Shown: positions 17,804 to 40,277, numbered from the stretch's first letter. The stretch: DNA of 64,000 nucleotides from Kiritimatiellia bacterium (GCA_050944835.1 JBMNRV010000008.1:7001-71000), one strand, 5' to 3'. Notes: a model not told the origin generated them from the sequence alone. Program-made: numbers and translations.

Positions 17804-17824
17804 GGGATTGGAGGAAAGCGGCGT

Positions 17825-18805: not shown

Positions 18806-18834
18806 CGGGTTTTTCATGGAAGGAGTGAGAAGCT

Positions 18835-23317: not shown

Positions 23318-24073
23318 ATGAAAATCAAAATTGTAAAACGAGGACTGATGTGTTTGGCGGTCTGGGCCGCTGTGGTGGCGGTTGGGCGGCCCGGGCCGGA
23401 TTCGGCTGCGACGCAGGCTGTTCCGGCGCGCGTTTTGATTATTGGTGACTCCATGATGTGTTTGCCGTCGCATGCGCTGGAGCTGGCATTGGCCGGGCGC
23501 ACTGGTGTGACCACACGCGCTTACGCTTCCATCGGCACCGGATTGGCCCGCTTGGATTCGTTTGACTGGATGGAGAAAACCCGCTCATTGCTGCAAGAAT
23601 TCAATCCCGACATGACGTTGGTTTGGTTCGGCACCAACGATCGCCAGCCTATGCAGACTACCAACCGCATTGTCAAACTGGAAGAGCCGGAGTGGGAGGT
23701 GGAATATGCCGGACGCGTGAATGCCTTGATGACCTTGCTTCTTTCCGCCAACCCAACGGCGCGCGTGATGTGGCTGGAATTGCCCGATATGCGCGATGAA
23801 AAAATTCAGGCGGATGTGTTGTTGATCAATCGTTTGGTTCAAGCTGAGGCCGAGAAACACCAGCGGGTGGAATTCTTCGGTACGCGCGGGATATTGGGTT
23901 TTCGCGCCGGCAAGTTTACACCGTATGTCATCGGTTCCAAAGGATTGCCGGTTCAGGTGCGTGACCCGGATGGGATACACCTGAATCGCGCCGGAGCCGA
24001 CCGCTTGGCTGAATATATAGTTAAAGCAATCTATGAAACACCATCGGATGCGGAAACAAGTCAGGATCGTTAA
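23318..24073 (+). CDS. SGNH/GDSL-family hydrolase or acetyltransferase partner of the MBOAT (AlgJ/AlgX/PatB-like)
   Basis: Signal peptide. Block I GDS motif (VLIIGDSMM). Block III GTND-like (WFGTNDR). C-terminal DxxH-type catalytic region (DGIHLNRAGADR). Confidence 0.65.
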   Translation: MKIKIVKRGLMCLAVWAAVVAVGRPGPDSAATQAVPARVLIIGDSMMCLPSHALELALAGRTGVTTRAYASIGTGLARLDSFDWMEKTRSLLQEFNPDMTLVWFGTNDRQPMQTTNRIVKLEEPEWEVEYAGRVNALMTLLLSANPTARVMWLELPDMRDEKIQADVLLINRLVQAEAEKHQRVEFFGTRGILGFRAGKFTPYVIGSKGLPVQVRDPDGIHLNRAGADRLAEYIVKAIYETPSDAETSQDR

Positions 24074-27000
24074 TCGGGGATTGGCCTGGATCTGCTCGAT
24101 CTGGCTTGGAATTACGGCAGCGCCGACGGTATGGGCGCAAGATGCCTTAGAGTTATCCACGAATTTCTCATCGGCACAAGCTGTTGACGATGCCACAACC
24201 GCGGCAGTCGTTGCTCCGACCAATCTGGCGGCTGCCAAGCCCCTTGAAGTTGACCAAACAGTGCGCGCCCTGATGTATGAGGCCATGCTCAATGTGCAGG
24301 ATAAGCAATATGAAATAGCCATTCCCAAACTGGAGTCGGTGATTAAAGATGACCCGACTTTACTGGAAGCATGGTCAACACTGGGATGGGCATACTGGGC
24401 TTTGGATCGAAAACAAGATGCGGCAGAGCTCTGGCAGCGCCTGTTGAATATCGCCCCTAACGAACCGATGGGCTATAACCTGATGGCCCAGGTTGCTGTG
24501 TATGATGGCGATTTGACGCGCGCCGAAGAGCTTTTTGAGAAAAGCCTCACGTTAAATCCCGACCAATACGAAATGCGTATCTCATTGGCGCGCGTCCTGC
24601 TCTGGAATGGGAAAACCGAGCAGGCCGCCAAGGATTTGCGCCGGTTGCTGCAGGAGGATCGCGACCGGTTGGACGTGGAAATAGATTTGGCTTGGGCGAT
24701 GTATGCCAATGAGGAGTACGAGGATGTGCTGGAAGTCTGGAACCATATCAATGATGTGATTCCAGACCAGCCCGGTTATATGATGGCGCGCGCACAAGTC
24801 CTGTTGCTGATCGGCTCATTGACGGAGGCGGAAGCCGAAGCGCGCCGTATTCTGGAGATTGACCCTGGCAACCGGGATGCTTTCAACCTTTTGGCCAACC
24901 TGGCCATGCGTGCGCGCCGTCCTGAAGAAGCGATTGATGCTTTGCGCATAGTGTATGATATGGCGAAAACGGATGCCGTTCGGGCTGCGGTGGCGCTGCA
25001 AATCGCTTCCTACATGAAATCCGTGTATGATACCGATAAGACTGTTTTCACACTGTCGCAATGCTTGGATGCCGCTCATGATGCATATAAGTTGGACGAG
25101 GAAAATATTTCCTGCAAACTGTTTTATGGCGAGCTTCTGACTTCTGCCCGCCACTTCGATCGCGCTGAAGATGTTTTCCAATCGGTTATCAAAGAAAACA
25201 ATCCCTTCAACCTGCGCGCGCACATGGGGTTGGTGCACATCCTGTTGGCGAGCATGCAGCTTGATGAGGCGGAGAAGAAAATAAACGAAACCTTTCGCTT
25301 ATTTAATGTCGCTAATCCCTATCGTCACCTGTTATGGGCTCGGTTGCATTTTGCACGCGGCAATATTCCAGAGGCTATGGATGCCCTGGACCGCCTGGAG
25401 CGTGAAGGGGCTGCGGGCGCGGTCTTTACCCTGCTGTATCACGGGATCTCGCCCAGCGAATGGAGCGATGTGCCGTCGGTGCGCCAGTTCCGTGAGCACT
25501 TGATGGTGCTTCGGCGCGCTGGCTTTAAGTTTATTACACCATCGCAATTCAATGATTACTTTGCAAAACATGACAAGCCGCCGGCGGTGGAGGAGAAACG
25601 GTCGTTGCTTAGTCGCGCTCTGCAGGGGGTGCGTGCTTCTTGGAGCGGCCGACGGGTAGAGCAGGCGCAGCGTCTGTCAGATTATACTCCGGATATGACG
25701 GTGTGTGTGACGATGGACGATGCACTCCGCAATTCCTTGCGCTACGGCAATGTGGTGGCGGAAGAATTACAGGTGCCGATAACCATGTTTTTACCAGTCG
25801 GCAACATTTTGAAGCACGACACCTACACGGCTTCATTCAAGGAAATCCGTGACTATAATGCCTCCGGTTTATGGGAGATGCAAAGTCATCTCATGCAGGC
25901 AAGTTATCTCGCGATGACCAACCAGAACGGGCGTGAGGTCAACCCATTGCCGAATCTCGTCTGGTTGCCGGAAAAAAACCGTCAGGAGTCATTGCGCGAA
26001 TACCATGCCCGGCTGCGATATGAGTTTCGCGATTCGCGGCGGATTCTGGCGCGTGAGCTGGGGTTGGGAGAGTCGGAAATCAATGCTGTGGCATATCCCA
26101 TAGGTGACATCGGCCAGGAAACCACCTGCAATATTGATTTCTTCAATGTGCCGGAAGTGATTCTGAACGAAGCCGAGATCACCTACGCTCTGGGATTTAT
26201 CCAAGACGAATTCGGTTATTCCATGCCTTCCGACAACCCCATGCTTTACAAGCGTTATGAGCCCAAACGTTTTACTACCGGGCGTGAGGTGTATCGCGCG
26301 GCCATGCGCAACCATCCGGTATTCGCTGCGCGCCGCATGCGGGCTGAAATCGCGGCTCTGAGCGGTGAGCTGCATTTGGCCCAAGAAATGGTGCGCTTGT
26401 TGAAGCGCGATGGGTATCCCGAGGAAGATTTAGAGGAAATCAACACCATGGTTCATAAACATGTTGCCCGCCTGATGCATGTGCCGGAAACCGCCCCGGA
26501 TGATATTTCTATCAAAAAGGAAGTGTTGTTTGAGCCGCAAAAACCATTCTTGGCGGTCGAAGGCGATTTTACTAAGGCGAATGTAATGATCGAATCGTGG
26601 CATGGCGGCGCCGCCGCCGGGCTTAATCTGAATCCACGCTTGAGCCTGAACGTACGCGCCGGCATCGGCGGCATTAAGCAAACTGTGTTCTCCAACACAG
26701 TGGTTGAAGTTGAACAAACCAGCCGCTCTTCGTCTCGTTCCGATGTCACCATCATAACCGATGGGGAGACGATGCATCAGACTGAATACAGAACCACGGT
26801 TTCCACAGTGATGCTGCAATCCAACCGGGTTGATGAATATAAATACAAGGCCGACGAGCAGATGGTCGGCGCCGCTCTGAACTACATTCATACCCATGGC
26901 GCATACACCATGCTGGACCTGCGTTATCGCTCTTTCACCGGCGATGAATTGGATGAGGATGCCGGTGTCCTGGTCGGTTCCTTAGAACATCAATGGCGGC

Positions 27001-27614
27001 CGGTGCCGGCATTTGACACTTCTGTGCGTTACCAGCATGATCTTGTGCCGTCGGCGCGCAAGTTGCTGGAATACAATGGCTTTGCCCTGCGTGCCATCTG
27101 GCGGGTTAAGGATTGGTGGCACGCATCCACGTTTGGCGCGTTCTCCGTCTTTGATGACGATAATTCCCATTTGCATGCGAATGTCGAAAACTTGTGGCGG
27201 ATGTCAACCCGACACAATGTCTGGCTGGGTTTGCATGACTCGGTTGATACGGTGGATCGCGACAGCGATTTGTATTGGACGCCTTACTGGGATCAACGGC
27301 ATTATCTGGTGCTCCGGATCAGCCAGAGTTACCCGAATTATACTGCTGCGGCAAGGTTCCACTTGGGCTTGCAAAAAGAAAAGGCGCGTCAGGAGGACTT
27401 GGATGCATACAATACCGCCAAAGCCGCCGCCGAGGGAAAAGGTTGGTACCCAGGCAGCAATCCGCAGCAGGGTTGGAACTCATTATTGGGATTAGGGGTG
27501 ACGCTATCACGTCGCTGGCAAAGCGGCTGGGAGTTCAGTGGAGAATTTGTCGTCAATGCCATCCGCGACTATACCGAGCATACAATCAGCGGTCGCTTAA
27601 TGTATCGTTTTTAA
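24033..27614 (+). CDS. Exopolysaccharide export/modification protein. It has N-terminal TPR repeats, a central CE4 (NodB/PgaB-like) polysaccharide deacetylase-like domain, and a C-terminal outer-membrane beta-barrel (PgaA/BcsC/PelB-like porin).
   Basis: 1193 aa with signal peptide. Many TPR-like helices (AWSTLGWAYWALDRKQDAAELWQRLLNIAPNEP... and following). Central CE4-like motifs (VTMDDA ~ TFDDG; AYPIGDIGQ ~ RxPYG). The C-terminal ~450 aa are rich in amphipathic beta strands and end in ...RLMYRF (terminal aromatic OMP signature). Confidence 0.55.
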   Translation: MKHHRMRKQVRIVNRGLAWICSIWLGITAAPTVWAQDALELSTNFSSAQAVDDATTAAVVAPTNLAAAKPLEVDQTVRALMYEAMLNVQDKQYEIAIPKLESVIKDDPTLLEAWSTLGWAYWALDRKQDAAELWQRLLNIAPNEPMGYNLMAQVAVYDGDLTRAEELFEKSLTLNPDQYEMRISLARVLLWNGKTEQAAKDLRRLLQEDRDRLDVEIDLAWAMYANEEYEDVLEVWNHINDVIPDQPGYMMARAQVLLLIGSLTEAEAEARRILEIDPGNRDAFNLLANLAMRARRPEEAIDALRIVYDMAKTDAVRAAVALQIASYMKSVYDTDKTVFTLSQCLDAAHDAYKLDEENISCKLFYGELLTSARHFDRAEDVFQSVIKENNPFNLRAHMGLVHILLASMQLDEAEKKINETFRLFNVANPYRHLLWARLHFARGNIPEAMDALDRLEREGAAGAVFTLLYHGISPSEWSDVPSVRQFREHLMVLRRAGFKFITPSQFNDYFAKHDKPPAVEEKRSLLSRALQGVRASWSGRRVEQAQRLSDYTPDMTVCVTMDDALRNSLRYGNVVAEELQVPITMFLPVGNILKHDTYTASFKEIRDYNASGLWEMQSHLMQASYLAMTNQNGREVNPLPNLVWLPEKNRQESLREYHARLRYEFRDSRRILARELGLGESEINAVAYPIGDIGQETTCNIDFFNVPEVILNEAEITYALGFIQDEFGYSMPSDNPMLYKRYEPKRFTTGREVYRAAMRNHPVFAARRMRAEIAALSGELHLAQEMVRLLKRDGYPEEDLEEINTMVHKHVARLMHVPETAPDDISIKKEVLFEPQKPFLAVEGDFTKANVMIESWHGGAAAGLNLNPRLSLNVRAGIGGIKQTVFSNTVVEVEQTSRSSSRSDVTIITDGETMHQTEYRTTVSTVMLQSNRVDEYKYKADEQMVGAALNYIHTHGAYTMLDLRYRSFTGDELDEDAGVLVGSLEHQWRPVPAFDTSVRYQHDLVPSARKLLEYNGFALRAIWRVKDWWHASTFGAFSVFDDDNSHLHANVENLWRMSTRHNVWLGLHDSVDTVDRDSDLYWTPYWDQRHYLVLRISQSYPNYTAAARFHLGLQKEKARQEDLDAYNTAKAAAEGKGWYPGSNPQQGWNSLLGLGVTLSRRWQSGWEFSGEFVVNAIRDYTEHTISGRLMYRF

Positions 27615-27701
27615 ATTGCGTTTCGCTCTGTTCGCCCCGGCGACCGAGCGCCTGCATGCCTTGTTTTCCTGATGCGGCTATGCGGCTGATCGCCTGTCGT
27701 C

Positions 27702-30700
27702 CTACTCGAACAGCACGATGGCGTCTTGGGCATTGTCGGATTTGACGTCTGCGGCGGAGTCAGTCGGTGTGAGCAGCGGCATGGTGTGCGCGCGGCGCGG
27801 CCCGGCAAATATGCCGTTGAACGGGCAGAATTCACGGACTTCGACTATGCGCCGATCCTTATCGGTGCGCATAACCATGACGGTCTTGTTTGTGCCCAGC
27901 AAGCTGCGTTCTAGTTGCTCGCACCATTCCGCGCTTGGCATTCGATTGACCAACAAGGTCAACCCGTTCAGGTCTAATCCTTGTATCAATGCGAGCATCT
28001 CTGGTATTTTTAAAGTACGCAACGTGGCGGCGCGCACACATGGCAGGAGGCGGATTTGGTAATAGCGGCAGAGGATGCGTAAGTCGGTGAAGTCTTCATT
28101 CGTTTCACGCCGGAGCGTGCCGTCATCTTCTTGCATGAACCAGGGTGGGGCAATCGCGCTCAAGGTGCGCGTCCATGGTTGCAACATCTGAACATAATCG
28201 TCATCGGCCCATGATTCTGCGCGTGGTTTAAACACCCCGATGCGGACGGGCAACGGGCCGCCGCTGACTTCCCGCAGATGAACTTGCGCTACACCGAATT
28301 GCGGCGACCATGGCGCCAGTCCCCACCAACCCAATCCGATTTCGGGCGGGATCGGCAACGGAGCGCCGAAGGCCGGTTTGTCGTTGATGTAACACGACGC
28401 GCCGCAGCCGCGTAACTCCAGACGCAGGCGCACGTTTCCAGGCGGCTTGTTCCAGGCGCGAGTCTGGTTGGCGACAGTCTCGCCATTGTGCCAGACTTGC
28501 AGATAAAGCTGTCCAGTCTGCTCAAACCCGAATCGAATCATGTTCCCTTCACCGCGGCGGGCGTAGAGCCAGAAAAATCCGCGTGTGTCTTCCAACAGGG
28601 CTTCAATGAAACCGCTATGCATCGTGTCGGAACCGGTCAGTCGCAGCACTGCTTCCGTTTGAGCCGGCGCAGCGGTAAGGAGTGGAATTTCATCATCCTG
28701 GTCGGCGGGATCGCCGTAAATATTCCAGTTGGTTGAAATTTGGCCGACGGTGAATTCTTCACGCACGGGCACAGTACGCGGCAGCATTGCAGCGGCCATT
28801 GCGCGTTGCGTGGCGTTGGACGATTGTCGCGCCACATCATCCAGATAATTTATGAGCGGCCATGATTCCGGATGGCTCAGTAGATTCCAGCGCTCAATAA
28901 CCTGAAGCATTTGGCTTTCCATGGCCGGGTCGGCGGCGATTTTCATGATTTCCATGAGGTTGTTGAAGCGGTCGGCTGGTTTCTGGAGTAAGCGATGCAT
29001 CAGAGCGCGCGCGTCCAGATCGCTCGGGTTTTCCTGTATGAGTCGTTGAATTTTCGCCGCTGCGGCCTGCGGCTGTTTTTGAAACAGCAGGAGCTCCGCC
29101 TGCGCCAGTATGATGTCCGGGTTGTTGGGGAAGAGACGCTCATAGACATCCAGCAGGTTTCCGGCATCGTCGCCGCGCTGTGCTTTGGAATACATCAGGC
29201 GCGCACAGCGTACCACAAGGTCAATTTGTCCGGGGTCTTGTTCCAGACTGGCTTGATAGGCGCCAATGGCCGCCCCGATTTCATTCTGTTGCAGATAGGC
29301 ATCGGCGATCAGAGTCATCGGCTCGGCATTGCGTGGGTCCAGTACAGCCCATTGCCGCCAGATTTTAACTGCGTTGTCGAAGTCGCCGCGCTGCAAAGCG
29401 GCGTGGCCCTCTGTGCGCAAGATGTTAGGGCTGGCATCTTGCACCGCGTATGGATCGGCATCGCCGCCGGCCAGCTCATAGAAGGTGATTGGATGCTCAC
29501 TCTGTTCAGGCGTGGCCTTTACTACCGCGATCAAACGGTTAGCGCCGTTGGTTTGGCTCGATTTCAGGAGCGGTGAGTCTGGCGCCACGGCCACGGTTAA
29601 ATTGCTTATGCCTTGGAAGAGCGATGCCAGCGCGGGCACCTGTTCCCAGATTGGCGGTAGGCGCGCAATGATGGAGAGGTTGTGCTTGTTCAAATCCCGG
29701 CTGAACAACTGCAGCCATGTAGTGATCTGGGAAAGCGGCACGGATTGATCCATCTGACTCAGGTTAAGCAGCACGCCCTGCGCCGATAAGGCGGCCGCGT
29801 TGGCGGCAATTTCGCCGGACATGCCGTCTTTAATGCCATCCAGGTTTTCCAGAAAAATTTCCGGCTGAAACATAAGGCGATGAATTCGGGCGACGGCGCT
29901 GTAAAATTCGGCGTTCCAGCCGAATTGTTCGGCATGTCCACCGGCGAAAACCCGCATCCACGGCGGCGAAAAGTGCGTGTAGCGGAAGGCGTTGCGGCTG
30001 ATCCAGTATGCCATGTCGGCGTCGCGGTGGTCGGTCGGTGTAAATGTGATTAACGCCGGTTCGGCGGGCATAAGGTCCAGCGCGGTGATTTCCACGCTGG
30101 CATATCCACGCCGCGGATGCCAAAGGCTGCATCCTATCATACCGGGCCGGATTTCGCCGCGGGTGGAAATAATTTCCTTAAAAATAGGGTGGCCACCAGC
30201 CATGGCGAAAAACAAGCGATCGCGCAAGTAAATATCCAATTGCGCTTCACCGTCCGGTGTGGTGGTGTAACGTCCGGCGCTTAAAGTGAAAGGTTCCATA
30301 CCAGTGTGTTTCTGGCGGAGCCAGGCTTCGCCTTCCGGCGTCAGCACAAGATACAGGTAAGATTCGCCGTCGGGCGAGGCCCGCAAAAAGATGCCGAACT
30401 GTCCAGATTTGATCCGCGCCTGTAAGCGCAGGTGAAAAGCATTGTAAAGGTCGCTGCCGTTCAGCCAGACTTTGGCGCCGGTTGCATCCGGCTGGGCTTG
30501 CAGGATAGCGGAGCGCCCGGTGAGTTTGAATTCGCCCCAGTCCGGCAGCCATGCGAGCGGGGTGTTCATAATTTTCGGGCTGGTATATCCTTTCCGTTTA
30601 GGCCAGGCGTGTTCCAAGCGCTGCATCAGATCATCCGCTGTCCAATCCGATTGCACTAGCAATCGGTTCAGGCGGCGCGGATCAGTATGTCGGGTGTTCA

Positions 30701-31607
30701 GGGCGGTATTGCCATGGATAAAACCCAGATCATAGAAGTGGGAGACCAGGTGCATATTCAGGCGCCGGGTAAATAGCGCGCGTTCATCGTATTGCCCAAA
30801 ATCTCCGTATGGGAAAGCGTATGCGGTAGGAGGCTGGCCGAGTTCATCGGAGATGATTTTACGGCAGTATTCGTGGTCATCAATCAGGCGTTGGCGGAAG
30901 GCATCCGGTGTTTCATAACGCATTTCTCGCGGAAACCAGCGTGGAGTAGTCATGTAATTTCGTTTTTCGCCGGTGTTGTTGGCCAGAACTGTTTCAAATC
31001 CATGATGGCTCTGGGCGCCGGCTTCCCATGCGCCGCTGCGCACCATAGTGCGCACATACGGCCAACGCAACGCTGAAGGGTCTTCATCCATGATCGGTTT
31101 GGTCCAGAGAAACATGACGGCCTGCCACCCGGCGCGTTGCAGGACACGCCGCGCGTCGAAATACGAGGATTTGCGGGAGTGGTCAAAAGTCATCAGGATG
31201 GCTTTGCGCGGCAGCGGGCGGTTTTCACGGTAAAACGCTGTGATGTCGCGTAGAGTAATCGGATGGTATCCGGCCGCCCGTAATGCCTCAAATTGCGCGC
31301 GGAAACGTTCAGGGGTGAGTTCGCCGGGATTAGCGGAAATGCCTTGGTAAGCCAACGCCACAAATTCATAGGCATCGCGTGGGCCGACATCCGTCGGTCG
31401 GAACATAAAGACGCGCGTGACAGCGTAACGGATCGGTGTCCACCAAGCCGCTATCAGGCAGATGATAAGCATGAAGTAAAGCCAAGCTTGCCGATAGCTG
31501 GTCTTCAATGCCTGAACACGCGCCGGCACAATTGGCAGCTTGTCGGCGAGTCTTGACGGACGAGTTGCATCCGTCTGTTTGCCGTGCTGTTCGTTTTCAA
31601 ATTTCAT
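27702..31607 (-). CDS. Inner-membrane-anchored multidomain EPS-modifying protein. It has an N-terminal TM, a CE4 deacetylase-like domain (variant TFDH motif), TPR repeats, and a conserved ~330-aa C-terminal module of unknown function shared with the 33085..35415 product.
   Basis: 1301 aa. N-terminal TM (AWLYFMLIICLIAAWWTPI). CE4-like (ILMTFDHSRKSSY..., AFPYGDFGQ). TPR segment (FDNAVKIWRQWAVLDPRNAEP...AYLQQNEIGAAIGAYQASLEQDPGQ). C-terminal block GFIEALLEDTRGFFWLYARRGEGNMIRFGF...GLGWWGLAPW...GGPLPVRIG is almost colinear with the paralog. ATGA overlap with the upstream GT2 gene suggests translational coupling. Confidence 0.5.
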   Translation of the reverse strand: MKFENEQHGKQTDATRPSRLADKLPIVPARVQALKTSYRQAWLYFMLIICLIAAWWTPIRYAVTRVFMFRPTDVGPRDAYEFVALAYQGISANPGELTPERFRAQFEALRAAGYHPITLRDITAFYRENRPLPRKAILMTFDHSRKSSYFDARRVLQRAGWQAVMFLWTKPIMDEDPSALRWPYVRTMVRSGAWEAGAQSHHGFETVLANNTGEKRNYMTTPRWFPREMRYETPDAFRQRLIDDHEYCRKIISDELGQPPTAYAFPYGDFGQYDERALFTRRLNMHLVSHFYDLGFIHGNTALNTRHTDPRRLNRLLVQSDWTADDLMQRLEHAWPKRKGYTSPKIMNTPLAWLPDWGEFKLTGRSAILQAQPDATGAKVWLNGSDLYNAFHLRLQARIKSGQFGIFLRASPDGESYLYLVLTPEGEAWLRQKHTGMEPFTLSAGRYTTTPDGEAQLDIYLRDRLFFAMAGGHPIFKEIISTRGEIRPGMIGCSLWHPRRGYASVEITALDLMPAEPALITFTPTDHRDADMAYWISRNAFRYTHFSPPWMRVFAGGHAEQFGWNAEFYSAVARIHRLMFQPEIFLENLDGIKDGMSGEIAANAAALSAQGVLLNLSQMDQSVPLSQITTWLQLFSRDLNKHNLSIIARLPPIWEQVPALASLFQGISNLTVAVAPDSPLLKSSQTNGANRLIAVVKATPEQSEHPITFYELAGGDADPYAVQDASPNILRTEGHAALQRGDFDNAVKIWRQWAVLDPRNAEPMTLIADAYLQQNEIGAAIGAYQASLEQDPGQIDLVVRCARLMYSKAQRGDDAGNLLDVYERLFPNNPDIILAQAELLLFQKQPQAAAAKIQRLIQENPSDLDARALMHRLLQKPADRFNNLMEIMKIAADPAMESQMLQVIERWNLLSHPESWPLINYLDDVARQSSNATQRAMAAAMLPRTVPVREEFTVGQISTNWNIYGDPADQDDEIPLLTAAPAQTEAVLRLTGSDTMHSGFIEALLEDTRGFFWLYARRGEGNMIRFGFEQTGQLYLQVWHNGETVANQTRAWNKPPGNVRLRLELRGCGASCYINDKPAFGAPLPIPPEIGLGWWGLAPWSPQFGVAQVHLREVSGGPLPVRIGVFKPRAESWADDDYVQMLQPWTRTLSAIAPPWFMQEDDGTLRRETNEDFTDLRILCRYYQIRLLPCVRAATLRTLKIPEMLALIQGLDLNGLTLLVNRMPSAEWCEQLERSLLGTNKTVMVMRTDKDRRIVEVREFCPFNGIFAGPRRAHTMPLLTPTDSAADVKSDNAQDAIVLFE

Positions 31608-33088
31608 CCGCTACCCCGTGTTCCCCATTTGCCGTGTGAAAGGGTGGCTAAGGCATAATAAATTTGCCAACTGAAAAACACGACATATGTGAATGTAAAC
31701 ACAAATCCCGCCCACCAATGTTTGCGGCCGGTTTTTTGCAGGTGGAAGATTGACCAGATCAACGTCATGGCCAATACGCCGACAGCGTATGAAAGTGTAA
31801 TACCGCCAGTTAGAAGCGGCGCTAAAACGAGCGCCTGCAGGATGATGAACGGCTCAATAACCGGCAAAAACATCATGGCGTACCAAGACAGCGCGGGCAC
31901 AGGATGTTTGCGCCAGATGAATGTGGTTGCGCCGATCATCCCGTGCAGGGAGGAGCGCATCCAGCGCGCCTGTTGCCGGATATATTGCCGCCAGTTTTCC
32001 GGCACAATGGTTGTCGCCAACGCGTCGTCATCATACAGAATGCGGTAGTCGCGCAATACCAGGTTGGTCAGACTGCGATCGTCACCGTAGCGTCCTTCCA
32101 CCCCGAAGACTTTTTCGTTCATCCATTCTTCCATGACATGTAGGATGCAAACCCGACGGTAAGCGGAGAAACAGCCCGGCAGGCAACTGACCATTCCGAA
32201 GATGCTTTCCGATGCCTTCATGATCTTATACGAAAAGAAATAGCGCACATCCTGCATCTTGGTCAACACATTGACGCGGGAGTTTTCCACGTCCGTGTGG
32301 CCGGCAATTCCCCCCACCATCGGATCAATGAATCCCTGTACCAGCTTGCTGACGGCGCCTGGCATCAGGAATGTGTCGGAATCAACGAAAACAATTATAT
32401 CACTGCGCGCCAACAGGGCAGCGCAGGACATCCCATAGGAAAGGCCGCGGTTGAATTCAAAATCCACCACTATCAGACTTCGGAACCGTGCTTGAGCGCG
32501 CATCATTTCCGCCAGAGTATTGTCAGTGGAGCCGTCGTTGACGACGATGACTTCGAGCAACTCATGCGGGTAGCCTTCGGCATACACCCGCGCGATTGAG
32601 CGCGCAATAGCTTTATCTTCATTCATACAGGGTATAGCCACAGTTGTCGGCGGCCTAAATCCTACATCGGGCGGCGGTGCGTAAAAAGCTGCGAAAATGA
32701 AGCGTGAAATAATAAAAATACCGACCACTAAACTGTAAATATTGACGACGGGGGCATACCAGTAATGCTCCATATTGATTACTTGAAAATACACTGCCGT
32801 GGTCAGCAACAAGATGCCTAAGGTGCCGAGCAGTATTATCCCCCAGATCGGCAGTTTGTTATAAAGAAATTTACGGCGCTCTTCCGCGTCTATTTCATGC
32901 GGCAATTCGGCGGGGGGTGGCGGGGTAAACGATGAAAGCGTCAGCGCGCCGCGGCAAAATGGACAAACAGACGGCGTCGGCGCTTCAATGACACTGATTG
33001 AAAGGCGGCAGGCAGGGCATCGGGCCTTAGTGCCGCCGGTTGCGGAAGACGCGGAATTATTGGTAGATGGATGTGTAGAAGAAGTCAT
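31604..33088 (-). CDS. Processive family-2 glycosyltransferase (HasA/NodC/chitin-synthase-like N-acetylglucosaminyl-type synthase) with N-terminal C4 zinc-ribbon and multiple TM helices
   Basis: GT2 catalytic motifs: VIVVNDGSTDNT (DxD-region), FVDSDT, GDDRSLTNLVL (compare HasA GDDRCLTNYA), and QQARW (the QxxRW motif of processive beta-glycan synthases). N-terminal CPACR...CPFCRG zinc ribbon. About 6 TM segments flank the catalytic domain. Confidence 0.85.
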   Translation of the reverse strand: MTSSTHPSTNNSASSATGGTKARCPACRLSISVIEAPTPSVCPFCRGALTLSSFTPPPPAELPHEIDAEERRKFLYNKLPIWGIILLGTLGILLLTTAVYFQVINMEHYWYAPVVNIYSLVVGIFIISRFIFAAFYAPPPDVGFRPPTTVAIPCMNEDKAIARSIARVYAEGYPHELLEVIVVNDGSTDNTLAEMMRAQARFRSLIVVDFEFNRGLSYGMSCAALLARSDIIVFVDSDTFLMPGAVSKLVQGFIDPMVGGIAGHTDVENSRVNVLTKMQDVRYFFSYKIMKASESIFGMVSCLPGCFSAYRRVCILHVMEEWMNEKVFGVEGRYGDDRSLTNLVLRDYRILYDDDALATTIVPENWRQYIRQQARWMRSSLHGMIGATTFIWRKHPVPALSWYAMMFLPVIEPFIILQALVLAPLLTGGITLSYAVGVLAMTLIWSIFHLQKTGRKHWWAGFVFTFTYVVFFSWQIYYALATLSHGKWGTRGSG

Positions 33089-35415
33089 AAAAGCAATATG
33101 GCGTTTGGCGCCTCATGGTCAATCGGCGCAAATTCTTCCGCCATGGCTGGCAGCTCAGGCGGGAGGATTACAGGCAGTATATGTGTGCGCCGCGGCGCGG
33201 GAAACAAGCCGACATGCGCACAGATTTCACGCACCTGCGCGGACGGTTTATTTTCATCCTGCATGACGATCATCAGCGTCAGCGTAGTGTGCAACAGCGC
33301 TTGTTCAGCGGCGGCCAGCCATTCCGGGTTCGGCATCTTGTGCACCAGGATTGTCAAGCCATCGGTGCGGTCGGTGCGCGCCAGTTCGATCAACTCATCA
33401 AAATTCAAGCGATTCGGATGCTCAGTTGCCACCGATGGCAGCAGGCGTACACGATAATAACGGCACAGGAGACGACAATCCATGTCGTCGTCTGTTTTGA
33501 TTGTGGCGATGGCGCCATTCGTGTTTTGGCGATACCAGGCTGGGGCCAGTGCGCTGAGCTCGTGCATACGACTTTTCAGTTGCCGGATTTTTTCCGCCGA
33601 CAATTTACCCTGACAATCCTCATCCTGGGAGGTGGGTGGGATTCCGATACGCACCGGGAGCGGACCTCCTTTCAATCCACGGATGACAGCTCCCGCGCCG
33701 CCGGGCTGCTGACTCCATGGCGCAAATCCCCACCAGCCTAAGCCCATGTCATTCGGTATCGAGAGGGGTGAGCTAAAGGCAGGCGCGTCATCCACGAAAG
33801 CGACGGCGCCATCGCCGCGCAGGTCCAGACGCATTCGCACCGCGCCTTGTCGGCACTGCCGGACACGGTTGTAATTTACGAGCAATTGGCCGTTAAGCCA
33901 GTTTTGCAGGTAAATCCGGTTGTTTTCGTCAAATCCGAACCGAATCATATTGCCTGAGCCGCGGCGGGCATACATCCAGAAAAATCCTCGACTGCTTTCA
34001 ACTACGGCCTCGATAAAACCGTTGGGCATGGATTCCGAACGAGTCAGACGCAGGGATACTTCCGATTGTTTGGCTGCGGTGTCCAGGATCAGGCGGCCGT
34101 GTTGGAATAGGTTGCCATCCTTTGACGCCGCCCAGTCTTGCGACATGCGACCGTGCCGAAATTCTTCTATTGCCGGAGTCTGGCGCGGGAGGAAGTCGGT
34201 GAAAAAGCAGCGTTGTTCGGGTGTGGTTGCCCGCTCCGCCTCCTGTGCGATGAAATTCAGCAACATCCATGATTCCGGGTGGCTCAATAGGTCATGTTCA
34301 CGGATATTGGACGCCAAGGCCGACGCCATGCCGGGACGTTCCGCCGTCGCCAACATAGCGCGCAAGTTATCGAAGCGTTCGCGCATGCTGGGCAATAGGT
34401 CATGCAGCAGGGCCAGCGCCTGCATCTTGTCGGCATCGGATTTGTCCATGCCGCCGTCAATCACTTGTTTGGCAAGGGCACGGGCTTCATCGTGTCGGTG
34501 CCGGCGCACAAGCCAAGCAGCCTGAGCGAGCGCCACCATGGAGTTGTTCGGGAAAATCCGGGCGTAAAAATTCAACAGATCGCGTGCCGCTTCAGGTTTT
34601 CCAGCGGCTGTATCCAGCAGGCGCGCCTTGCGCATGGCCAGCTCAATCTGGCCGGGATAAACTTGCAAGCTGCGGCGGTAATATTGCATGGCTTGTTCTA
34701 TATCGTCAGTAAAAAGATAGACGTCGCCGATGAGCGAAAGAGGTTCAAAGTTTTCCGGCTCCAGCTCGTGCCATTGGGTCCAGATTTTAACCGCATTGGT
34801 GAAGTTGCCGGCATTGAAAGCGTTCCATCCTTCTTGACGCAAGGCATGCGCCCGTAGCTCGGATGTCCAGCGCTCTTCGCGGGTGGGCAAGTCGGATAAT
34901 TCATAATACAAAGCCAATTCCATATCATGGGGCAGATCGGCATAATTGCGTTCGGGCGGCGGCAGGAGCGGCGTCATGGAAGCGCTGAGGGTGACGCCGG
35001 TATAGCTTTCGTAGCCGTGAATCAACAGGTGGTAAACACCCTCTGGTGGCTGTTCGATTTTGATGTCCTCAGTATTGCCCAGTACGAACGGCCGATAGTC
35101 ATATTCGCGCAGGGACGGTTGGTTGGTTTGGGATAGATACAAATCGGCGTCGCCGTCGCCGCCATCCATTGTGATTATCAGGTTTACTTGTCCGGTCTGC
35201 ACGGCAATTGTGAAATACAGAAGTGAGCCCTTCTCGCCGGACAGGTTGGAGATCGTCTGTCCGGCTTGCAGAACGTGCGGTGCGGCAATGTTTTCAATTT
35301 GCGTGGGCGGCGCCGCGACGGCGTCCGGATCGGCGCCTTCCGCCAGGCGTATGATCGGTCCGATGCAGAGCATCAAGATGGCCGTGCGTATAAATATGGA
35401 TTTATTTTTGTGCAT
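33085..35415 (-). CDS. Secreted TPR-repeat protein with N-terminal PPC/pre-peptidase-C-terminal-like beta-sandwich. Paralog of the 27702..31607 C-terminal two-thirds (shared TPR block plus conserved ~330-aa C-terminal module).
   Basis: Signal peptide (MHKNKSIFIRTAILMLCIGPIIRLAEG). PPC-like segment (LYFTIAVQTGQVNLIITMDGGDGDADLYL...). TPR (FTNAVKIWTQWHELEPENFEP...). C-terminal block GFIEAVVESSRGFFWMYARRGSGNMIRFGF...GLGWWGFAPW...GGPLPVRIG. ATGA overlap with the GT2 start. Confidence 0.5.
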   Translation of the reverse strand: MHKNKSIFIRTAILMLCIGPIIRLAEGADPDAVAAPPTQIENIAAPHVLQAGQTISNLSGEKGSLLYFTIAVQTGQVNLIITMDGGDGDADLYLSQTNQPSLREYDYRPFVLGNTEDIKIEQPPEGVYHLLIHGYESYTGVTLSASMTPLLPPPERNYADLPHDMELALYYELSDLPTREERWTSELRAHALRQEGWNAFNAGNFTNAVKIWTQWHELEPENFEPLSLIGDVYLFTDDIEQAMQYYRRSLQVYPGQIELAMRKARLLDTAAGKPEAARDLLNFYARIFPNNSMVALAQAAWLVRRHRHDEARALAKQVIDGGMDKSDADKMQALALLHDLLPSMRERFDNLRAMLATAERPGMASALASNIREHDLLSHPESWMLLNFIAQEAERATTPEQRCFFTDFLPRQTPAIEEFRHGRMSQDWAASKDGNLFQHGRLILDTAAKQSEVSLRLTRSESMPNGFIEAVVESSRGFFWMYARRGSGNMIRFGFDENNRIYLQNWLNGQLLVNYNRVRQCRQGAVRMRLDLRGDGAVAFVDDAPAFSSPLSIPNDMGLGWWGFAPWSQQPGGAGAVIRGLKGGPLPVRIGIPPTSQDEDCQGKLSAEKIRQLKSRMHELSALAPAWYRQNTNGAIATIKTDDDMDCRLLCRYYRVRLLPSVATEHPNRLNFDELIELARTDRTDGLTILVHKMPNPEWLAAAEQALLHTTLTLMIVMQDENKPSAQVREICAHVGLFPAPRRTHILPVILPPELPAMAEEFAPIDHEAPNAILLL

Positions 35416-37798
35416 TCTTGGTGGCCGCAGGCTCTTTGTTTTGGGCTGAACGCGGTTGATTTGCCGGTGTTAAAATTTCCGGCAAATCACGGAGCAAACC
35501 GTGGTTGAGCGCGTAAATCGCATAACCGTCAGCGCCGGCGCTCAGAGCGTCCTGAATTTGACTCAACATTTCCGGCGGCGTCAGCCTGGCAGCGCTGGAA
35601 GCGACACCGATTCCCGGAAGTACGCGTCCGGCAGCGCCGGGTAATGCGATTTGCGCGGTTGTCCATGCGGCAAACTCACCCGGGTTGGCAGTGTAGTTCA
35701 TGGGGCAAACAAAATCAAGAGCATCTTCCCGCAACCATTCTCCCCAGTTTTGGCCTTCCGTTCCGACGCATTCCGGGTAATGCGGGTAAACCGCGGCGGA
35801 TATTATAATGCCGGGTCGGCGCTGACGGAGGCGTTTCGAACAGGCGTTGACGAACTCGCTGATTTGCTGTGCCCGCCATTTGCGGTATTGTTCCCCCAAT
35901 GCGCCGGTCTGAGCCGCCAAGGGCCAAGCGGTTGTTTCCGGCGCATTGACGGCTGCGAAAAACTCTTTCCGGCAAGCCAAACAGCAACAATGCTGGCTGT
36001 CGGGGTAGCGTATGTAATCCAAGTGCAGCCCGTCCGTTGTCACGGCATCGGCCAATTCTTCCAGGCGTGCCAGTTCTAATTCGCGGTTCCGGGTTTGAGA
36101 GGGACAGAGCCAAGCGGTTGTTTGGAATCCAAAGGATTGTTGCAGGCGACCGTCTTGTTCCATTTTTTTGATTTGTGTTGCCGCCAGGCCATCCAGATTC
36201 CAGCAGATATACCAGATATGCGTTTTCAGTCCATTACGGCGGCAGGCTTCAAAAACATCCCGATTCGGATCGGTGTCGCGTGGCACGTGAAGAAAGACAT
36301 CGGTCAATCCGGCAGCAGCCAATTTGGGCGCCACTCGATCCCAGTTTTCTGCCTGCATGGGTGTGCCTACCCAGATGCAGCGCCGTCCCTGGCCCAACTT
36401 CGGCATATTCGCGGCGGCGCGGGCATTCAGCGCTGCTGATAGTTTGTCCGTTAGCCGCCAAGCGGCGGCTGGGTCGCCGGCGTTCAGGACGGCGCGGGCT
36501 TGGTCGCGTAAACTGCGCAGGTCATCAACATCAACGGCATGTTCCCATTCCATAGGGATAGGGCTTGCAGCCAGAACATCGTCCAGTGTGTGCCGTGCGG
36601 CGGCAGCCAGAGTTCCCGGTAGAAATTGATCGAGCAGGGCGGCCAACATGTGCCGCTGCGCTGCGGCATCATCCGCCTGCGGAACATGTGGCATCCAGAT
36701 GCCTTTCGGGGAAGATAAACAGGCGGCTTCGGATTGCCGACGCCCTTGAGCATCGAGCCACCATGCCAGGGTTTTAGTTTCCTTGCTGGCTGCGGATGCC
36801 GTAATCAGGTAGGTGGCGCCGGCTTGAAACACCTGCGGCGGTCCCTGCCAGCTGGGCGCCGTCGCGAAACTCATGGCATGCCAACGGCCTGGACGTTCAG
36901 CGGCGGTGTAGCCGCCGGGTTGCACTCCCATAAGGTTGCCTAGTTTGGCATCGCCACTGTAGCAGACGAATAGGTATCCCTGGCGTTCCAAGTGGCGTTG
37001 AATGTTTTTTAACATTGCGGGTGTAAGATGCGGGTGGCACGGCAGAATCAGCATCCGGTAACGCTGTGGCAAGCTCCGTGAGGCCAGGTCCTCGTCGGAG
37101 ATCATGGCGTAAGGCAGTCCCATTTCCGATAATTGCATACCGATCCAATTAGCGATGCTAGCGCCGAAAGCGCGCTCGGCGGCATTGGCAAACACCTCCG
37201 CCCCGGGCCTGGCGATTGCAATTGCCGCCGATTTGTGGCGCGCCGCATGCAGAATCAGGCGCCCAGCCCCGCGTTTTGCCGACCACGGTGATACGCGATA
37301 GCCTGATGTTGCGCTCCACCCGTCCGGGACGCCCTGGTCTTCAAAATCTGATTTGGGAATCCAATGCCGGGTACGTCCCTGACGCACAGGCAAGGCCGCT
37401 GCGCGCCAGCCTTTGCCAGCGCGCCAGTACCAAGTAATGGATTGAAAAGCGCCCGGATTATCGCAGGTGTATTCCACTTCCAAGCCGTCGGACGCGCTCA
37501 AATCAACTTGGAGGTCGCAATCCCAATAATGCCGGATAGCGTCAGGCATGAACGGGCAAAAGAAGTCTTGTCCATTCGGGGCGTCTCTCACCAGTGGCGT
37601 AAGCGGGCCAGGCTGCCATGCGGAAACTGCATCCGGCAATAAAGACTGGTCGGAATATGCTGGCGGGATGCAAACCGCGCAAAAAAACAATCCTAAAAAC
37701 AACAGTTGGCAAGTTTGCCGTAGATATGCGGCAGCACACTGGCGAATACGGATGGACACAGATGTCACAATTCCATTTCGGGGCATCAGGTATCTCAT
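35402..37798 (-). CDS. GHL10-family glycosyl hydrolase-like protein (YddW/DigH, YngK-like; DUF187) with N-terminal additional domain; putative GlcNAc-glycan hydrolase of the EPS operon
   Basis: 798 aa with signal/TM N-terminus. C-terminal half carries GHL10 hallmarks (TIM-barrel segment ...GLTDVFLHV..., LHLDYIRYP motif, Cys-rich CCCLAC). First gene of a 4-gene overlapping operon (14-nt overlap with the 33085..35415 gene). Confidence 0.55.
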   Translation of the reverse strand: MRYLMPRNGIVTSVSIRIRQCAAAYLRQTCQLLFLGLFFCAVCIPPAYSDQSLLPDAVSAWQPGPLTPLVRDAPNGQDFFCPFMPDAIRHYWDCDLQVDLSASDGLEVEYTCDNPGAFQSITWYWRAGKGWRAAALPVRQGRTRHWIPKSDFEDQGVPDGWSATSGYRVSPWSAKRGAGRLILHAARHKSAAIAIARPGAEVFANAAERAFGASIANWIGMQLSEMGLPYAMISDEDLASRSLPQRYRMLILPCHPHLTPAMLKNIQRHLERQGYLFVCYSGDAKLGNLMGVQPGGYTAAERPGRWHAMSFATAPSWQGPPQVFQAGATYLITASAASKETKTLAWWLDAQGRRQSEAACLSSPKGIWMPHVPQADDAAAQRHMLAALLDQFLPGTLAAAARHTLDDVLAASPIPMEWEHAVDVDDLRSLRDQARAVLNAGDPAAAWRLTDKLSAALNARAAANMPKLGQGRRCIWVGTPMQAENWDRVAPKLAAAGLTDVFLHVPRDTDPNRDVFEACRRNGLKTHIWYICWNLDGLAATQIKKMEQDGRLQQSFGFQTTAWLCPSQTRNRELELARLEELADAVTTDGLHLDYIRYPDSQHCCCLACRKEFFAAVNAPETTAWPLAAQTGALGEQYRKWRAQQISEFVNACSKRLRQRRPGIIISAAVYPHYPECVGTEGQNWGEWLREDALDFVCPMNYTANPGEFAAWTTAQIALPGAAGRVLPGIGVASSAARLTPPEMLSQIQDALSAGADGYAIYALNHGLLRDLPEILTPANQPRSAQNKEPAATKNAQK

Positions 37799-37840
37799 CC
37801 TTCATCCCTCATCCTTCACTCCGCCCTCATCCTTAAGGAT
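37794..37840 (-). repeat. Tandem direct repeats (minus-strand AAGGATGAG x4, plus-strand CTCATCCTT) overlapping the RBS/start codon of the GHL10 gene, followed by a perfect 12-bp palindrome ATCCTTAAGGAT (37829..37840)
   Basis: Read directly in the sequence: tcatccttcatccctcatccttcactccgccctcatccttaaggat. Each unit contains an SD-like AAGGA plus ATG, so several out-of-frame ATGs precede the annotated start. Confidence 0.6.
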
Positions 37841-37867
37841 AATGACAACACCGGGTGGGCGCCGACA

Positions 37868-38203
37868 TTATTCCCAAACATAAGGGTTATCCTTCTTTGG
37901 GGCGCTGTCAGTGTCAAGATTCGTTCCGGTCGGAATGATTCTGCGGAATATGGGCAACTGCGTTTGCGCCGGCGCTGACTCCGGTGCGGGCACAGGCACG
38001 GGCTCCGGTGCGGGTGCAGGCGGCGGTGGATTATCAATCGGCACTACGAATCTTTCGGCGCGGGAAGACGTTTCCGGCTTTTTTTCAGATATCGCTCCCT
38101 CTAGATGTTTTCGCCGGACGCGGGAATTCCAAATGGTGGCGACGGCAAAAACCAAGCTGAGAATGGAGGCAATAATGGTTGTTGCGGTCAGGCTGTCGTT
38201 CAT
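37868..38203 (-). CDS. Small proline-rich single-pass membrane protein (111 aa), first gene upstream of the EPS operon
   Basis: N-terminal TM (TTIIASILSLVFAVATIW) then PPPPAPAPEPVPVPAPESAPAQ low-complexity linker and a short C-terminal tail. Shares the divergent AT-rich promoter region with the response-regulator gene. Confidence 0.35.
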   Translation of the reverse strand: MNDSLTATTIIASILSLVFAVATIWNSRVRRKHLEGAISEKKPETSSRAERFVVPIDNPPPPAPAPEPVPVPAPESAPAQTQLPIFRRIIPTGTNLDTDSAPKKDNPYVWE

Positions 38204-38440
38204 TTCTTTACCTCATATACGGGTAAAGAATAGGATAAAACAACAATGGGTCAAGCTAATTTTCAGCTAATTTTTCATGTTTCATACGAGCTGTTATGGG
38301 CTTTTCTTGGAAATATGAATTGACTTCTAGTAAACATGCAGGTAAATTTGGCTACTGTTATCGGTTATCTGTTTGTTTGCTTTGGACGGCGCCGGACTGA
38401 TAATCGTTGTGCTTTTGTTTAATGTACTAGAATTGGTGTC
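38204..38440. promoter_or_regulatory. AT-rich divergent intergenic/promoter region between the EPS operon (minus) and the RR-KaiC-like-ExeA-like genes (plus)
   Basis: 237-nt non-coding stretch with markedly lower GC than the flanking genes. Genes diverge from it on both strands. Confidence 0.4.
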
Positions 38441-38812
38441 ATGGCTAAAATTTTAATTATAGACGACGATCAGATGATTCTGGGATACTTCAAACGCATC
38501 CAAGATAAGCTGAAAAAAGAAATCGTCACTGCATCTGACGGGATGGAAGGTTGTCAGATGGCGCAGGATCCCGATGTTAAACTCATAGTTATGGATTTCT
38601 GTATTCCCGGTGGTTTAGAAAAGACATCTTTATTGCAAAAATTGAAAAGCCTACGTCCGGAATTGCCGATAATTGTCATTTCTGGCTTTTCCTCAAAGGA
38701 GATTGTTGAGGAGTGCCACAAATTGGGCGCCAGCGAGTTTTTGTCTAAGCCCTTCGAGTTGTCGTTTTTGCCGACGATTATCCGGCGCTTGTTGGATACC
38801 ACACCGGAGTGA
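38441..38812 (+). CDS. Stand-alone response-regulator receiver domain protein (CheY-like, no output domain)
   Basis: 123 aa. Acidic pocket DDD (ILIIDDDQ), phospho-acceptor Asp in LIVMDF, conserved T/S and Lys (FLSKPF). Confidence 0.85.
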   Translation: MAKILIIDDDQMILGYFKRIQDKLKKEIVTASDGMEGCQMAQDPDVKLIVMDFCIPGGLEKTSLLQKLKSLRPELPIIVISGFSSKEIVEECHKLGASEFLSKPFELSFLPTIIRRLLDTTPE

Positions 38813-38879
38813 TAAATCCATAATGAGGCCTTGTTTCATGTGGTAATTGCTAAAATTACATTAAGAACAATTACTAAGT

Positions 38880-40118: not shown

Positions 40119-40187
40119 AGTCGAAGACTGAAGGCAGGGTGAAGGCGGGAGTCGGCGATACCGCCTGCCCTTATTCCACTTGTCCAA

Positions 40188-40220
40188 ATCCGTGTTTATC
40201 CGTGCTTCTTCCCATCTGTT
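40188..40220 (+). promoter_or_regulatory. Phased 10-bp direct repeats ATCCGTG(T/C)TT x2 followed by TTCTTCCCATCTG, ~65 nt upstream of the ExeA-like gene; candidate transcription-factor (response-regulator-type) binding site
   Basis: Sequence aaATCCGTGtttATCCGTGcttcttcccatctg. The same 17-mer ATCCGTGTTTATCCGTG recurs at 61306 (3 phased copies), and a related copy on the minus strand lies at ~63879-63898. Confidence 0.4.
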
Positions 40221-40277
40221 CAGCTTAAGCGCATCTGTGACAAACTTGCCAACGGTCGTTTTTAAGGTTAAATTAAC

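Follow-up and report, generated by a model that had tools for sequence, protein, structure and literature searches.

To our knowledge, synthase-dependent secretion of exopolysaccharides is known from a few models, namely cellulose, alginate, poly-N-acetylglucosamine (PNAG) and Pel, all of them from Proteobacteria and Firmicutes. In the PNAG system pgaABCD, the protein PgaB combines an N-terminal carbohydrate esterase family 4 (CE4) domain, in which H55, D114 and D115 are deacetylation active-site residues and H189 belongs to the Ni pocket (PMC7112194), with a C-terminal barrel that resembles glycoside hydrolase families GH18 and GH20 without their catalytic motifs and was first described as PNAG-binding (PMC5933820). 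The tetratricopeptide repeat (TPR) domain of PgaA is reported to bind both PNAG and PgaB (PMC9384988), and bacterial chitin-synthase loci described earlier carry DUF1501/DUF1800 (PMC5122149). Here we report on a locus from a Kiritimatiellia bacterium, contained in a 64,000-nucleotide stretch of DNA (GCA_050944835.1 JBMNRV010000008.1:7001-71000), hereafter the window, in which the gene of a family 2 glycosyltransferase (GT2) lies between those of two TPR proteins, termed A and B. Judging from the predicted proteins, this region is best explained as the core of a machinery for synthase-dependent exopolysaccharide secretion, of a kind characteristic of Kiritimatiellia and of related bacteria of the Planctomycetes-Verrucomicrobia-Chlamydiae (PVC) group. 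We lean, with slightly better than even confidence, to the reading that pseudo-enzyme modules carried on TPR scaffolds hold and guide a polymer of the N-acetylglucosamine (GlcNAc) type in this system. Searches of the literature on Kiritimatiellia exopolysaccharides, on synthase-dependent PgaB/GH18 systems and on bacterial chitin synthases turned up neither the operon nor the module shared by A and B, nor any exopolysaccharide machinery in Kiritimatiellia. The three open reading frames, which a first-pass annotation of this DNA had placed exactly on the minus strand, are as follows:

27702..31607, minus strand: protein A, 1301 residues (open reading frame translation)
31604..33088, minus strand: predicted processive GT2 synthase, 494 residues (open reading frame translation)
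33085..35415, minus strand: protein B, 776 residues (open reading frame translation)

The first-pass annotation had described A and B as paralogues with a colinear C-terminal module of about 330 residues. Their paralogy is real, as BLASTP paired residues 730-1281 of A with residues 192-752 of B (41% identity, 561 aligned residues, E 1e-141, 9 gaps) and the orthologues of each protein fall into separate clades. The colinearity also stands, with every one of the motifs cited for it (GFIEA, RGFFW, GNMIRFGF, GLGWWG, GGPLPVRIG and CRYY..RLLP) being found; however, the true shared block extends to about 560 residues and comprises the TPR block, a helical linker and the module, so that the TPR blocks, likewise said to be colinear, lie within the aligned region. 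Since all three parts align, the shared block goes far beyond repeat-helix likeness. The explanation that A and B resemble each other through a low-complexity TPR artefact, and that the module is no real domain, could draw on the TPR repeats that form part of the alignment, and had nothing else in its favour after testing. It is ruled out by profile matches of 520-548 bits over 359 positions outside the TPR region, by confident AlphaFold2 models and by invariant Trp, Gly and Pro columns. A HMMER search with the module profile in 1.84 billion protein cluster representatives (clusters at 50% identity) retrieved 178 of them, 80 below 1e-30, mainly in forms of about 1300 and about 550-850 residues, and we regard the probability of such an artefact as negligible.

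Protein A is laid out as a cytoplasmic N-terminus, one transmembrane helix, a PgaB-like degenerate CE4 domain, a first module, the TPR block and a second module. The membrane anchor proposed for it corresponds to a single hydrophobic segment. B consists of a signal peptide, a PPC (pre-peptidase C-terminal) beta-sandwich, the TPR block, the helical linker and the C-terminal module; the PPC domain is present in most B orthologues and missing from the short B forms of loci L001 and L013. On these grounds, B is best explained as a secreted paralogue that would have arisen by duplication of the TPR and module half of A, with the PPC domain added. The elements flanking the modules are:

31419..31487, minus strand: transmembrane anchor of A, residues 41-63 (hydropathy scan)
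28977..29426, minus strand: TPR block of A, residues ~728-877 (Pfam TPR_19, TPR_16, TPR_14)
35017..35217, minus strand: PPC domain of B, residues 67-133 (Pfam PF04151, 9.6e-12, above cutoff)
34396..34842, minus strand: TPR block of B, residues ~192-340 (Pfam TPR_14 and TPR_19; colinear with A by BLASTP)

A third module copy, absent from the first-pass annotation, lies in the middle of A: residues 366-632 match the profile built from C-terminal copies alone (31 bits, E 3e-11, profile positions 32-294). This match gives A the order transmembrane helix, CE4-like domain, module, TPR, module, and the operon three module copies; a second match of this kind recurs in nearly all homologues of about 1300 residues. 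In a neighbour-joining tree, 50 module copies from 18 genomes formed three clean clades, A-mid, A-C and B-C, each of which broadly repeats the same genome order, so both duplications are old, with every copy retained. The copies in the window are:

33091..34188, minus strand: module copy B-C, residues 410-775 of B, with the beta-sandwich ending near residue 588 and the GH18-like alpha/beta half starting near residue 589; beta4 motif DGLTILVH at 33340..33363 (profile A1, hmmsearch, 520 bits)
28248..28781, minus strand: sandwich half of copy A-C, residues 943-1120 of A; GLGWWG loop at 28320..28337 (AlphaFold2 model and Foldseek)
27738..28247, minus strand: alpha/beta half of copy A-C, residues 1121-1290 of A; beta4 motif NGLTLLVN at 27945..27968 (AlphaFold2, Foldseek and profiles)
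29712..30512, minus strand: divergent internal copy A-mid, residues 366-632 of A; beta4 motif QGVLLNLS at 29757..29780 (hmmsearch)

The module had been left without a family assignment. This holds for curated models: a Pfam scan of 10 module sequences gave no match at E<=10, in A and B Pfam and NCBIfam recognized the TPR, CE4 and PPC parts only (in NCBIfam, TPR and PgaB models), and a single module sequence compared with PDB sequences by phmmer gave nothing meaningful (best eIF2-alpha, E 0.6). It does not hold for the fold, which can be assigned as a ConA-like sandwich joined to a truncated GH18-derived domain. AlphaFold2, run on the whole A-C module with a 10-sequence alignment, gave a confident model (predicted local distance difference test [pLDDT] 86; predicted template-modelling score [pTM] 0.85), in which residues 1-178 of the module form a beta-sandwich and residues ~180-340 an alpha/beta domain. 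In Foldseek, the sandwich (pLDDT ~90) matched CBM66, GH16 lichenases, galectins and VIP36 at E ~1e-6, with target template-modelling (TM) scores of 0.55-0.68 to CBM66 4b1m, GH16 lichenases and galectins, and thus has a ConA-like fold; no named sequence family was attached to it in the Pfam comparison. The alpha/beta half, when modelled alone (19 sequences; pLDDT 87.6, pTM 0.83), comprises four beta-alpha units, after which come a hairpin and an additional strand. Its best Foldseek matches were all GH18 (5jh8, E 2.3e-4, TM 0.53; then 4ac1, SleL and ChiB), over about 150 columns, that is, roughly half a barrel. Independently of this, with a sequence profile of 35 diverse copies of this half, the top four PDB sequences were all GH18 (5jh8 at 2.5e-4, then 4wiw, 4q6t and YdhD), and hhalign related the profile to a true GH18 linked to the operon in locus L025 (P 9e-4). 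Both sequence-based comparisons align the "DG-hydrophobic-x-L" strand of the module with the GH18 catalytic strand (DG-x-D-x-D-x-E). PF00704, the GH18 family of Pfam, was unmatched by the 10 module sequences at E<=10 and GH18 chains of the PDB were reached with the custom profile only, and the GH18 link suggested by these models and profiles is a remote one. Direct homology to GH153 was also considered and was dropped because hhalign against the C-terminus of E. coli PgaB returned a probability of just 0.1. The best reading of the modelled fold is a rigid ConA-like sandwich packed on a four-unit alpha/beta domain that would derive from GH18 barrels and is devoid of the D-x-E motif.

This last feature bears on whether the module could be an enzyme. 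The DxxDxDxE motif of GH18 is missing from beta4 in the three window copies, which read NGLTLLVN (A-C), DGLTILVH (B) and QGVLLNLS (A-mid) and are all without Asp and Glu at the catalytic positions; across the family, just 2 of the 214 instances of the domain combine the catalytic Asp with the Glu of D-x-E. Elsewhere, the mid-copies of proteins P0023 and P0021 retain a GH18-like D-x-E on beta4 (DGIFLDLE and DGVFVDAE), so some internal copies might still be hydrolases. These few copies, together with a sandwich fold that is common to GH16 glucanases, speak for the explanation that A, the module or both are active enzymes with non-canonical sites, the sandwich or the GH18-like half cleaving or transglycosylating the polymer and the CE4 domain deacetylating, or doing other chemistry, through the His residues of TFDH and QSH instead of the Asp-His-His triad. 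We consider this unlikely, also in view of the CE4 domain described below.

The nearest GH18 relatives raise another explanation, according to which the module binds peptidoglycan, anchoring or spacing a trans-envelope apparatus at the cell wall. YdhD (3cz8) and SleL (4s3j) act on the peptidoglycan of the spore cortex, and the Foldseek and profile searches place 5jh8, 4wiw and 4q6t with this pair; moreover, GlcNAc occurs in peptidoglycan too, and synthase-dependent systems must cross the wall. Against it stand the constant genetic tie of the module to the GT2 gene, directly downstream and often overlapping, the minimal form of the system, in which the module takes the place of the polymer-binding C-terminal domain of a PgaB-like protein, and the absence of LysM, SPOR and OmpA-like domains beside the module in the Pfam scan. 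Wall binding therefore seems to us distinctly improbable.

The CE4 domain of A was recognized both by Pfam PF01522 (residues 131-271; 36.9 bits, above the 23.1 gathering cutoff) and, at 5.7e-30, by the PgaB model TIGR03938, whose cutoff of 321.9 bits is well above the 104.2 bits obtained over positions 26-266 of 621. It also matched the PgaB structures 3vus and 4f9d in the PDB at ~1e-13. The first-pass annotation had noticed TFDH in place of TFDD, and the PgaB D115 position is indeed His; alignment to PgaB, which it had recommended as a check, showed that the site departs from the canonical one beyond this single exchange, four of five PgaB active-site residues being replaced. The domain and its motifs are located as follows:

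30606..31319, minus strand: PgaB-like CE4 domain of A, residues ~97-334 (TIGR03938, PF01522, PgaB in the PDB)
31179..31190, minus strand: TFDH, residues 140-143 of A (aligned to TFDD of E. coli PgaB)
30996..31016, minus strand: AQSHHGF (PgaB residue mapping)
31335..31355, minus strand: LAYQGIS (PgaB residue mapping)

and the PgaB positions, of which we take H184 to be a metal ligand and H55 presumably the catalytic acid, are occupied as follows in A of the window and in 18 orthologues:

PgaB H55: Q in the window; E, Q, A or T in the orthologues
PgaB D114: D in the window; D in the orthologues, invariant where the position is covered
PgaB D115: H in the window; H in 13 orthologues, Q in 5
PgaB H184: Q in the window; Q in the orthologues, invariant
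PgaB H189: F in the window; F or Y in the orthologues

Thus, the Asp-His-His metal triad of CE4 reads H/Q, Q and F/Y across A and its orthologues, and the catalytic Asp/His pair is incomplete. With four PgaB site residues replaced, a canonical metal-dependent deacetylase is very unlikely, and the CE4 domain of A is, from its residues, probably not a metal-dependent deacetylase. Catalytically inactive CE4 pseudo-deacetylases exist, Bacillus anthracis BA0330/BA0331 being examples. An active, rearranged site would be in keeping with the strong conservation of the CE4-like domain (61% identity to the L001 orthologue), with the invariant D114 and with His at the D115 position in 13 of 18 orthologues and in the QSH motif of most. 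It is less easily reconciled with the way the substituted positions vary (H or Q at 115; Q or D instead of the QSH His in some orthologues), which argues against a new metal site, nor with an H55 equivalent that changes among E, Q, A and T; in addition, a more intact CE4 domain and a glycosidase-like barrel are already supplied by two neighbouring proteins, T1193 and U798, described below. One distant CE4 and module protein, P0153 (675 residues, locus L026), has a canonical CE4 site (TFDDG, GTHTDNGHEY). Its intact DD/H/H set is a further point for activity within the family, and indicates that the module probably arose beside an active PgaB-like deacetylase.

The GT2 enzyme displays the motifs DGSTD, DSD, PGCFSAYR, GDDRSLT and QQARW, with transmembrane segments on both sides, and so has the D, DxD and QxxRW residues of processive inner-membrane GT2 enzymes. 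It scored above cutoff in Pfam (Glycos_transf_2, 2.5e-26; Chitin_synth_2, 1.9e-25), matched NodC (4e-43) and PgaC_IcaA (4e-32) in NCBIfam, and in the PDB was closest to hyaluronan synthases (1.7e-22), followed by chitin synthases (about 1e-10). These affinities are best explained by a synthase that works processively in the inner membrane and belongs with NodC, hyaluronan synthases and chitin synthases. A product that contains GlcNAc is the simplest assumption and the most likely one; CE4 and GH18-type partners fit it, and the polymer may be chitin-, PNAG- or hyaluronan-like. At its N-terminus, on the cytoplasmic side, the enzyme carries a zinc ribbon (CxxC-x16-CxxC, residues 24-45, 32954..33019, minus strand). 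This ribbon, PGCFSAYR and Q-Q-x-R-W are kept in 17/17 GT2 orthologues, and GDDRSLT in 16/17; the invariant ribbon may have a regulatory function. When the operon proteins were scanned with Pfam, no cyclic di-GMP domain of the PilZ/GGDEF type turned up, no search having been aimed at one.

We then considered the distribution of the system in 185,579 species genomes, which yielded 18 loci. These data indicated that (i) 17 of the 18 are labelled Kiritimatiellia, Verrucomicrobiota, Lentisphaerae or "PVC group", the exception being "Candidatus Neomarinimicrobiota", and one, Kiritimatiellaeota bacterium B1221 (locus L012), is an isolate, (ii) the best genome matches, 72-73% identical, are metagenome-assembled genomes of Kiritimatiellia and "uncultured Verrucomicrobiota", (iii) the gene order B-GT2-A is found in 13 loci, 10 of which also have U798 upstream of B, (iv) four more loci contain A, with or without GT2, and no B, while one contig stops inside B, and (v) all homologues retrieved with a source name are annotated "hypothetical protein" or, generically, "TPR repeat protein". 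A 10-kb contig (L024, ENA ERZ2648042) carries a 99%-identical A fragment with DUF459 and TPR genes near it; its genes were called in fragments, which would fit a low-coverage assembly from one and the same species.

Aside from these loci, a minimal form was recognized in other uncultured bacteria, among distant proteins of about 600-750 residues that consist of a mostly degenerate CE4-like domain and a single module. Where the context was available (L025 1..4530, L027 and L028 1..6473, with proteins of about 600-650 residues), they are encoded immediately downstream of an orthologous GT2 with 46% identity. In L025 the pair is followed by the gene of a true GH18, in L028 by that of a TPR-CE4 protein resembling T1193. 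One such group (P0123/L028) is from Elusimicrobiota, and all members are annotated as hypothetical. As the minimal pairs keep just these elements, GT2 plus a CE4-like and module protein is the invariant core, in the layout of PgaC plus PgaB.

The genes of the core are tightly packed. Start and stop codons overlap as ATGA at both junctions, as had been reported (GT2/A, gcggATGAaat; B/GT2, ttttATGActt), and these overlaps are conserved in 14 of 15 loci for GT2/A and in 10 of 14 for B/GT2. The stop of U798 overlaps the start of B by 14 nt, which joins the three-gene set to a fourth gene. The overlaps support co-transcription and possible translational coupling. The further claim of a stoichiometric complex of the synthase with A and B goes beyond what the overlaps demonstrate, namely tight co-expression, and remains inferred. 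A promoter and terminator scan of 27400..38900 was uninformative on the operon boundaries, since sites occurred only at background frequency.

Such packing, the three module copies per operon, the old retention of the paralogues and an alpha/beta half of only four beta-alpha units would all suit a module that serves chiefly in protein-protein assembly, the half-barrels of A-mid, A-C and B-C pairing into barrels or rings and sugar binding being secondary. On the other side, sandwich and half-barrel already give a compact and confident model as a monomer (pTM 0.85), and minimal systems have a single module copy, which makes this explanation, in our estimation, very unlikely.

The genes next to the core add further candidate components:

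35402..37798, minus strand: U798, 798 residues, first gene of the packed operon (open reading frame translation)
24033..27614, plus strand: T1193, 1193 residues, convergent neighbour, with a signal peptide, a long TPR array, a CE4 domain and a C-terminal region of about 400 residues
21500..22945, plus strand: MBOAT acyltransferase (Pfam MBOAT, 6e-28)
23318..24073, plus strand: DUF459/SGNH protein (Pfam DUF459, 5.6e-51)

By hydropathy scan, B, U798 and T1193 all have N-terminal signal-like segments. U798 contains a weak TIM-barrel glycosidase-like region (Pfam GHL10, 2e-06, 27.6 bits, just below the 27.9 cutoff; DUF4015, 2.6e-4), with no sequence match in the PDB and no BLASTP similarity to the GH18 of L025, and is a candidate secreted polymer hydrolase. 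In T1193, the CE4 domain retains the equivalents of H55, D114, D115 and H184 (LLYHGIS, TMDDA, QSHLMQ); with most PgaB catalytic residues kept, it is a better candidate than A for a real deacetylase. The C-terminal region of T1193 ends in ...GRLMYRF. Orthologues adjoin the operon in L011, L014, L015, L017, L020 and L028, and T1193 probably belongs to the same system, as an outer-membrane scaffold or porin combined with a real deacetylase; it may thus be a fused scaffold-deacetylase-porin. The MBOAT, DUF459 and T1193 genes form one strand block, in which the DUF459 gene overlaps the start of T1193 by about 40 nt. All three lie convergently downstream in the closest relatives, same as in the window; MBOAT and DUF459/SGNH accompany the operon in L011, L015 and L017, and in L001 MBOAT is directly upstream of B. 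The two are candidates for O-acylating the polymer as a pair, in an arrangement that resembles the O-acetylation pairs AlgI/AlgJ-X or PatA/PatB. Overall, periplasmic TPR scaffolds of the kind found in synthase-dependent systems are provided by A, B and T1193, and polymer-modifying or cleaving enzymes, at the level of annotation, by MBOAT, DUF459/SGNH, the CE4 domain of T1193 and U798, and in the related locus L025 by its true GH18.

Taken together, these features suggest how the polymer might be handled. Gene structure, paralogy, folds, lost catalytic residues, synteny and junctions stand as observations; the ligand, the polymer and any physical complex are inferred from sequence, models and gene neighbourhood. 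As far as its predicted fold and genetic setting can tell, the module most likely holds on to the nascent sugar polymer while this is exported. The nascent chain leaving the synthase would be captured by the membrane-proximal dead CE4 domain and first module copy of A, then handed along the second copy of A and the paralogue B, and finally delivered to the TPR-CE4 protein T1193, possibly a porin. The dead CE4 domain and the three modules of sandwich and dead GH18 would act as lectin-like sites that hold the chain in the periplasm, the TPR blocks would link A with B and both with T1193, and U798, the MBOAT/SGNH pair and the CE4 domain of T1193 would trim and modify the chain en route. A bolder version, possible but doubtful, would see here an unrecognised chitin-like exopolysaccharide pathway of PVC bacteria and Elusimicrobiota, with the chain handled in the periplasm by pseudo-enzymes in place of enzymes, namely a dead PgaB-type CE4 domain and as many as three dead GH18 half-barrels fused to lectin-like sandwiches, and the half-barrels of A and B perhaps pairing into composite barrels as part of a conduit.

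Several points weigh against the guiding of a GlcNAc-type polymer by pseudo-enzyme modules. The GT2 enzyme falls below the equivalog cutoffs of both NodC (147.8 vs 550) and PgaC (111.7 vs 422.3). Within A, conservation is highest in the CE4-like domain (61% to the L001 orthologue vs ~44% for the module), which speaks against simple decay; the domain may have a role that is essential without being catalytic, or catalysis could persist at a rearranged site, and His is frequent both at the TFDH position and in "QSH". The alpha/beta half is a four-unit "half barrel", in which any sugar-binding groove is hypothetical. Finally, the C-terminal ~400 residues of T1193 were unmatched in Pfam or the PDB, whether searched as a single sequence or as a 4-sequence profile, and its porin role is putative.

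Elsewhere in the window, an open reading frame of 1487 residues at 484..4947 (minus strand) had no Pfam match at E<=1e-5. Positions 13801..21429 (plus strand) encode an 839-residue FG-GAP/fn3 protein followed by an Opp-type ABC transporter operon, which has a HAD-family hydrolase gene between its permease and ATPase genes. At 38880..41120 (plus strand), genes for a KaiC-like ATPase and an AAA_22 ATPase, divergent from the polysaccharide operon, are followed by tRNA-Val.

As to its wider meaning, the locus would extend the synthase-dependent scheme to Kiritimatiellia, Verrucomicrobiota, Lentisphaerae and Elusimicrobiota, mostly uncultured groups, and adds an uncatalogued domain family without a Pfam or NCBIfam model. 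It also offers a worked example of enzyme domains, CE4 and GH18, that seem to have become binding modules and to have been duplicated afterwards, and its link between a NodC/HAS/chitin-synthase-like GT2 and GH18-type partners bears on whether chitin-like polymers are secreted by bacteria.

Compared with known systems, the GT2 enzyme shares GDDRSLT, PGCFSAYR, QQARW and its best library matches with NodC, class I hyaluronan synthases and chitin synthases, and differs from them by its sub-cutoff scores and its invariant N-terminal zinc ribbon; its operon partners are unlike those of the chitin-synthase loci described earlier (PMC5122149). With GH18 chitinases and chi-lectins (the YdhD/SleL/5JH8 subgroup), the alpha/beta half has in common the beta1-beta5 part of the barrel and, with the chi-lectins, the missing catalytic Glu. 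In contrast to the GH18 family, the module has only about half a barrel, no Pfam GH18 match and a fused ConA-like sandwich. The pseudo-deacetylases BA0330/BA0331 resemble A in having kept the CE4 fold but not its metal and catalytic residues, which points to a role in binding or structure, and differ from it in subfamily, architecture and genetic context. The TPR scaffolds PgaA, PelB, BcsC and AlgK are, as here, periplasmic TPR arrays encoded with the synthase; however, A and B have short TPR blocks (~150 residues), which lead into the module instead of a beta-barrel porin, the long TPR array being on the separate protein T1193. A further comparison is with PgaB of E. coli and Bordetella, which like A is periplasmic, is encoded next to a GT2 synthase and begins with a homologous CE4 domain, followed, as in the module proteins, by a barrel-derived domain without GH18/GH20 catalytic motifs, a two-part layout common to the CE4-like and module relatives of about 600 residues. 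PgaB is a lipoprotein with a full GH153 (beta/alpha)8 barrel, whereas A is membrane-anchored, lacks such a C-terminal domain and has in its stead a sandwich and a four-unit GH18-like domain without profile similarity to it, adding TPRs, a second module and the secreted paralogue B. The architecture is thus a recognisable variation on PgaB/PgaA-type machinery and not a new principle or category.

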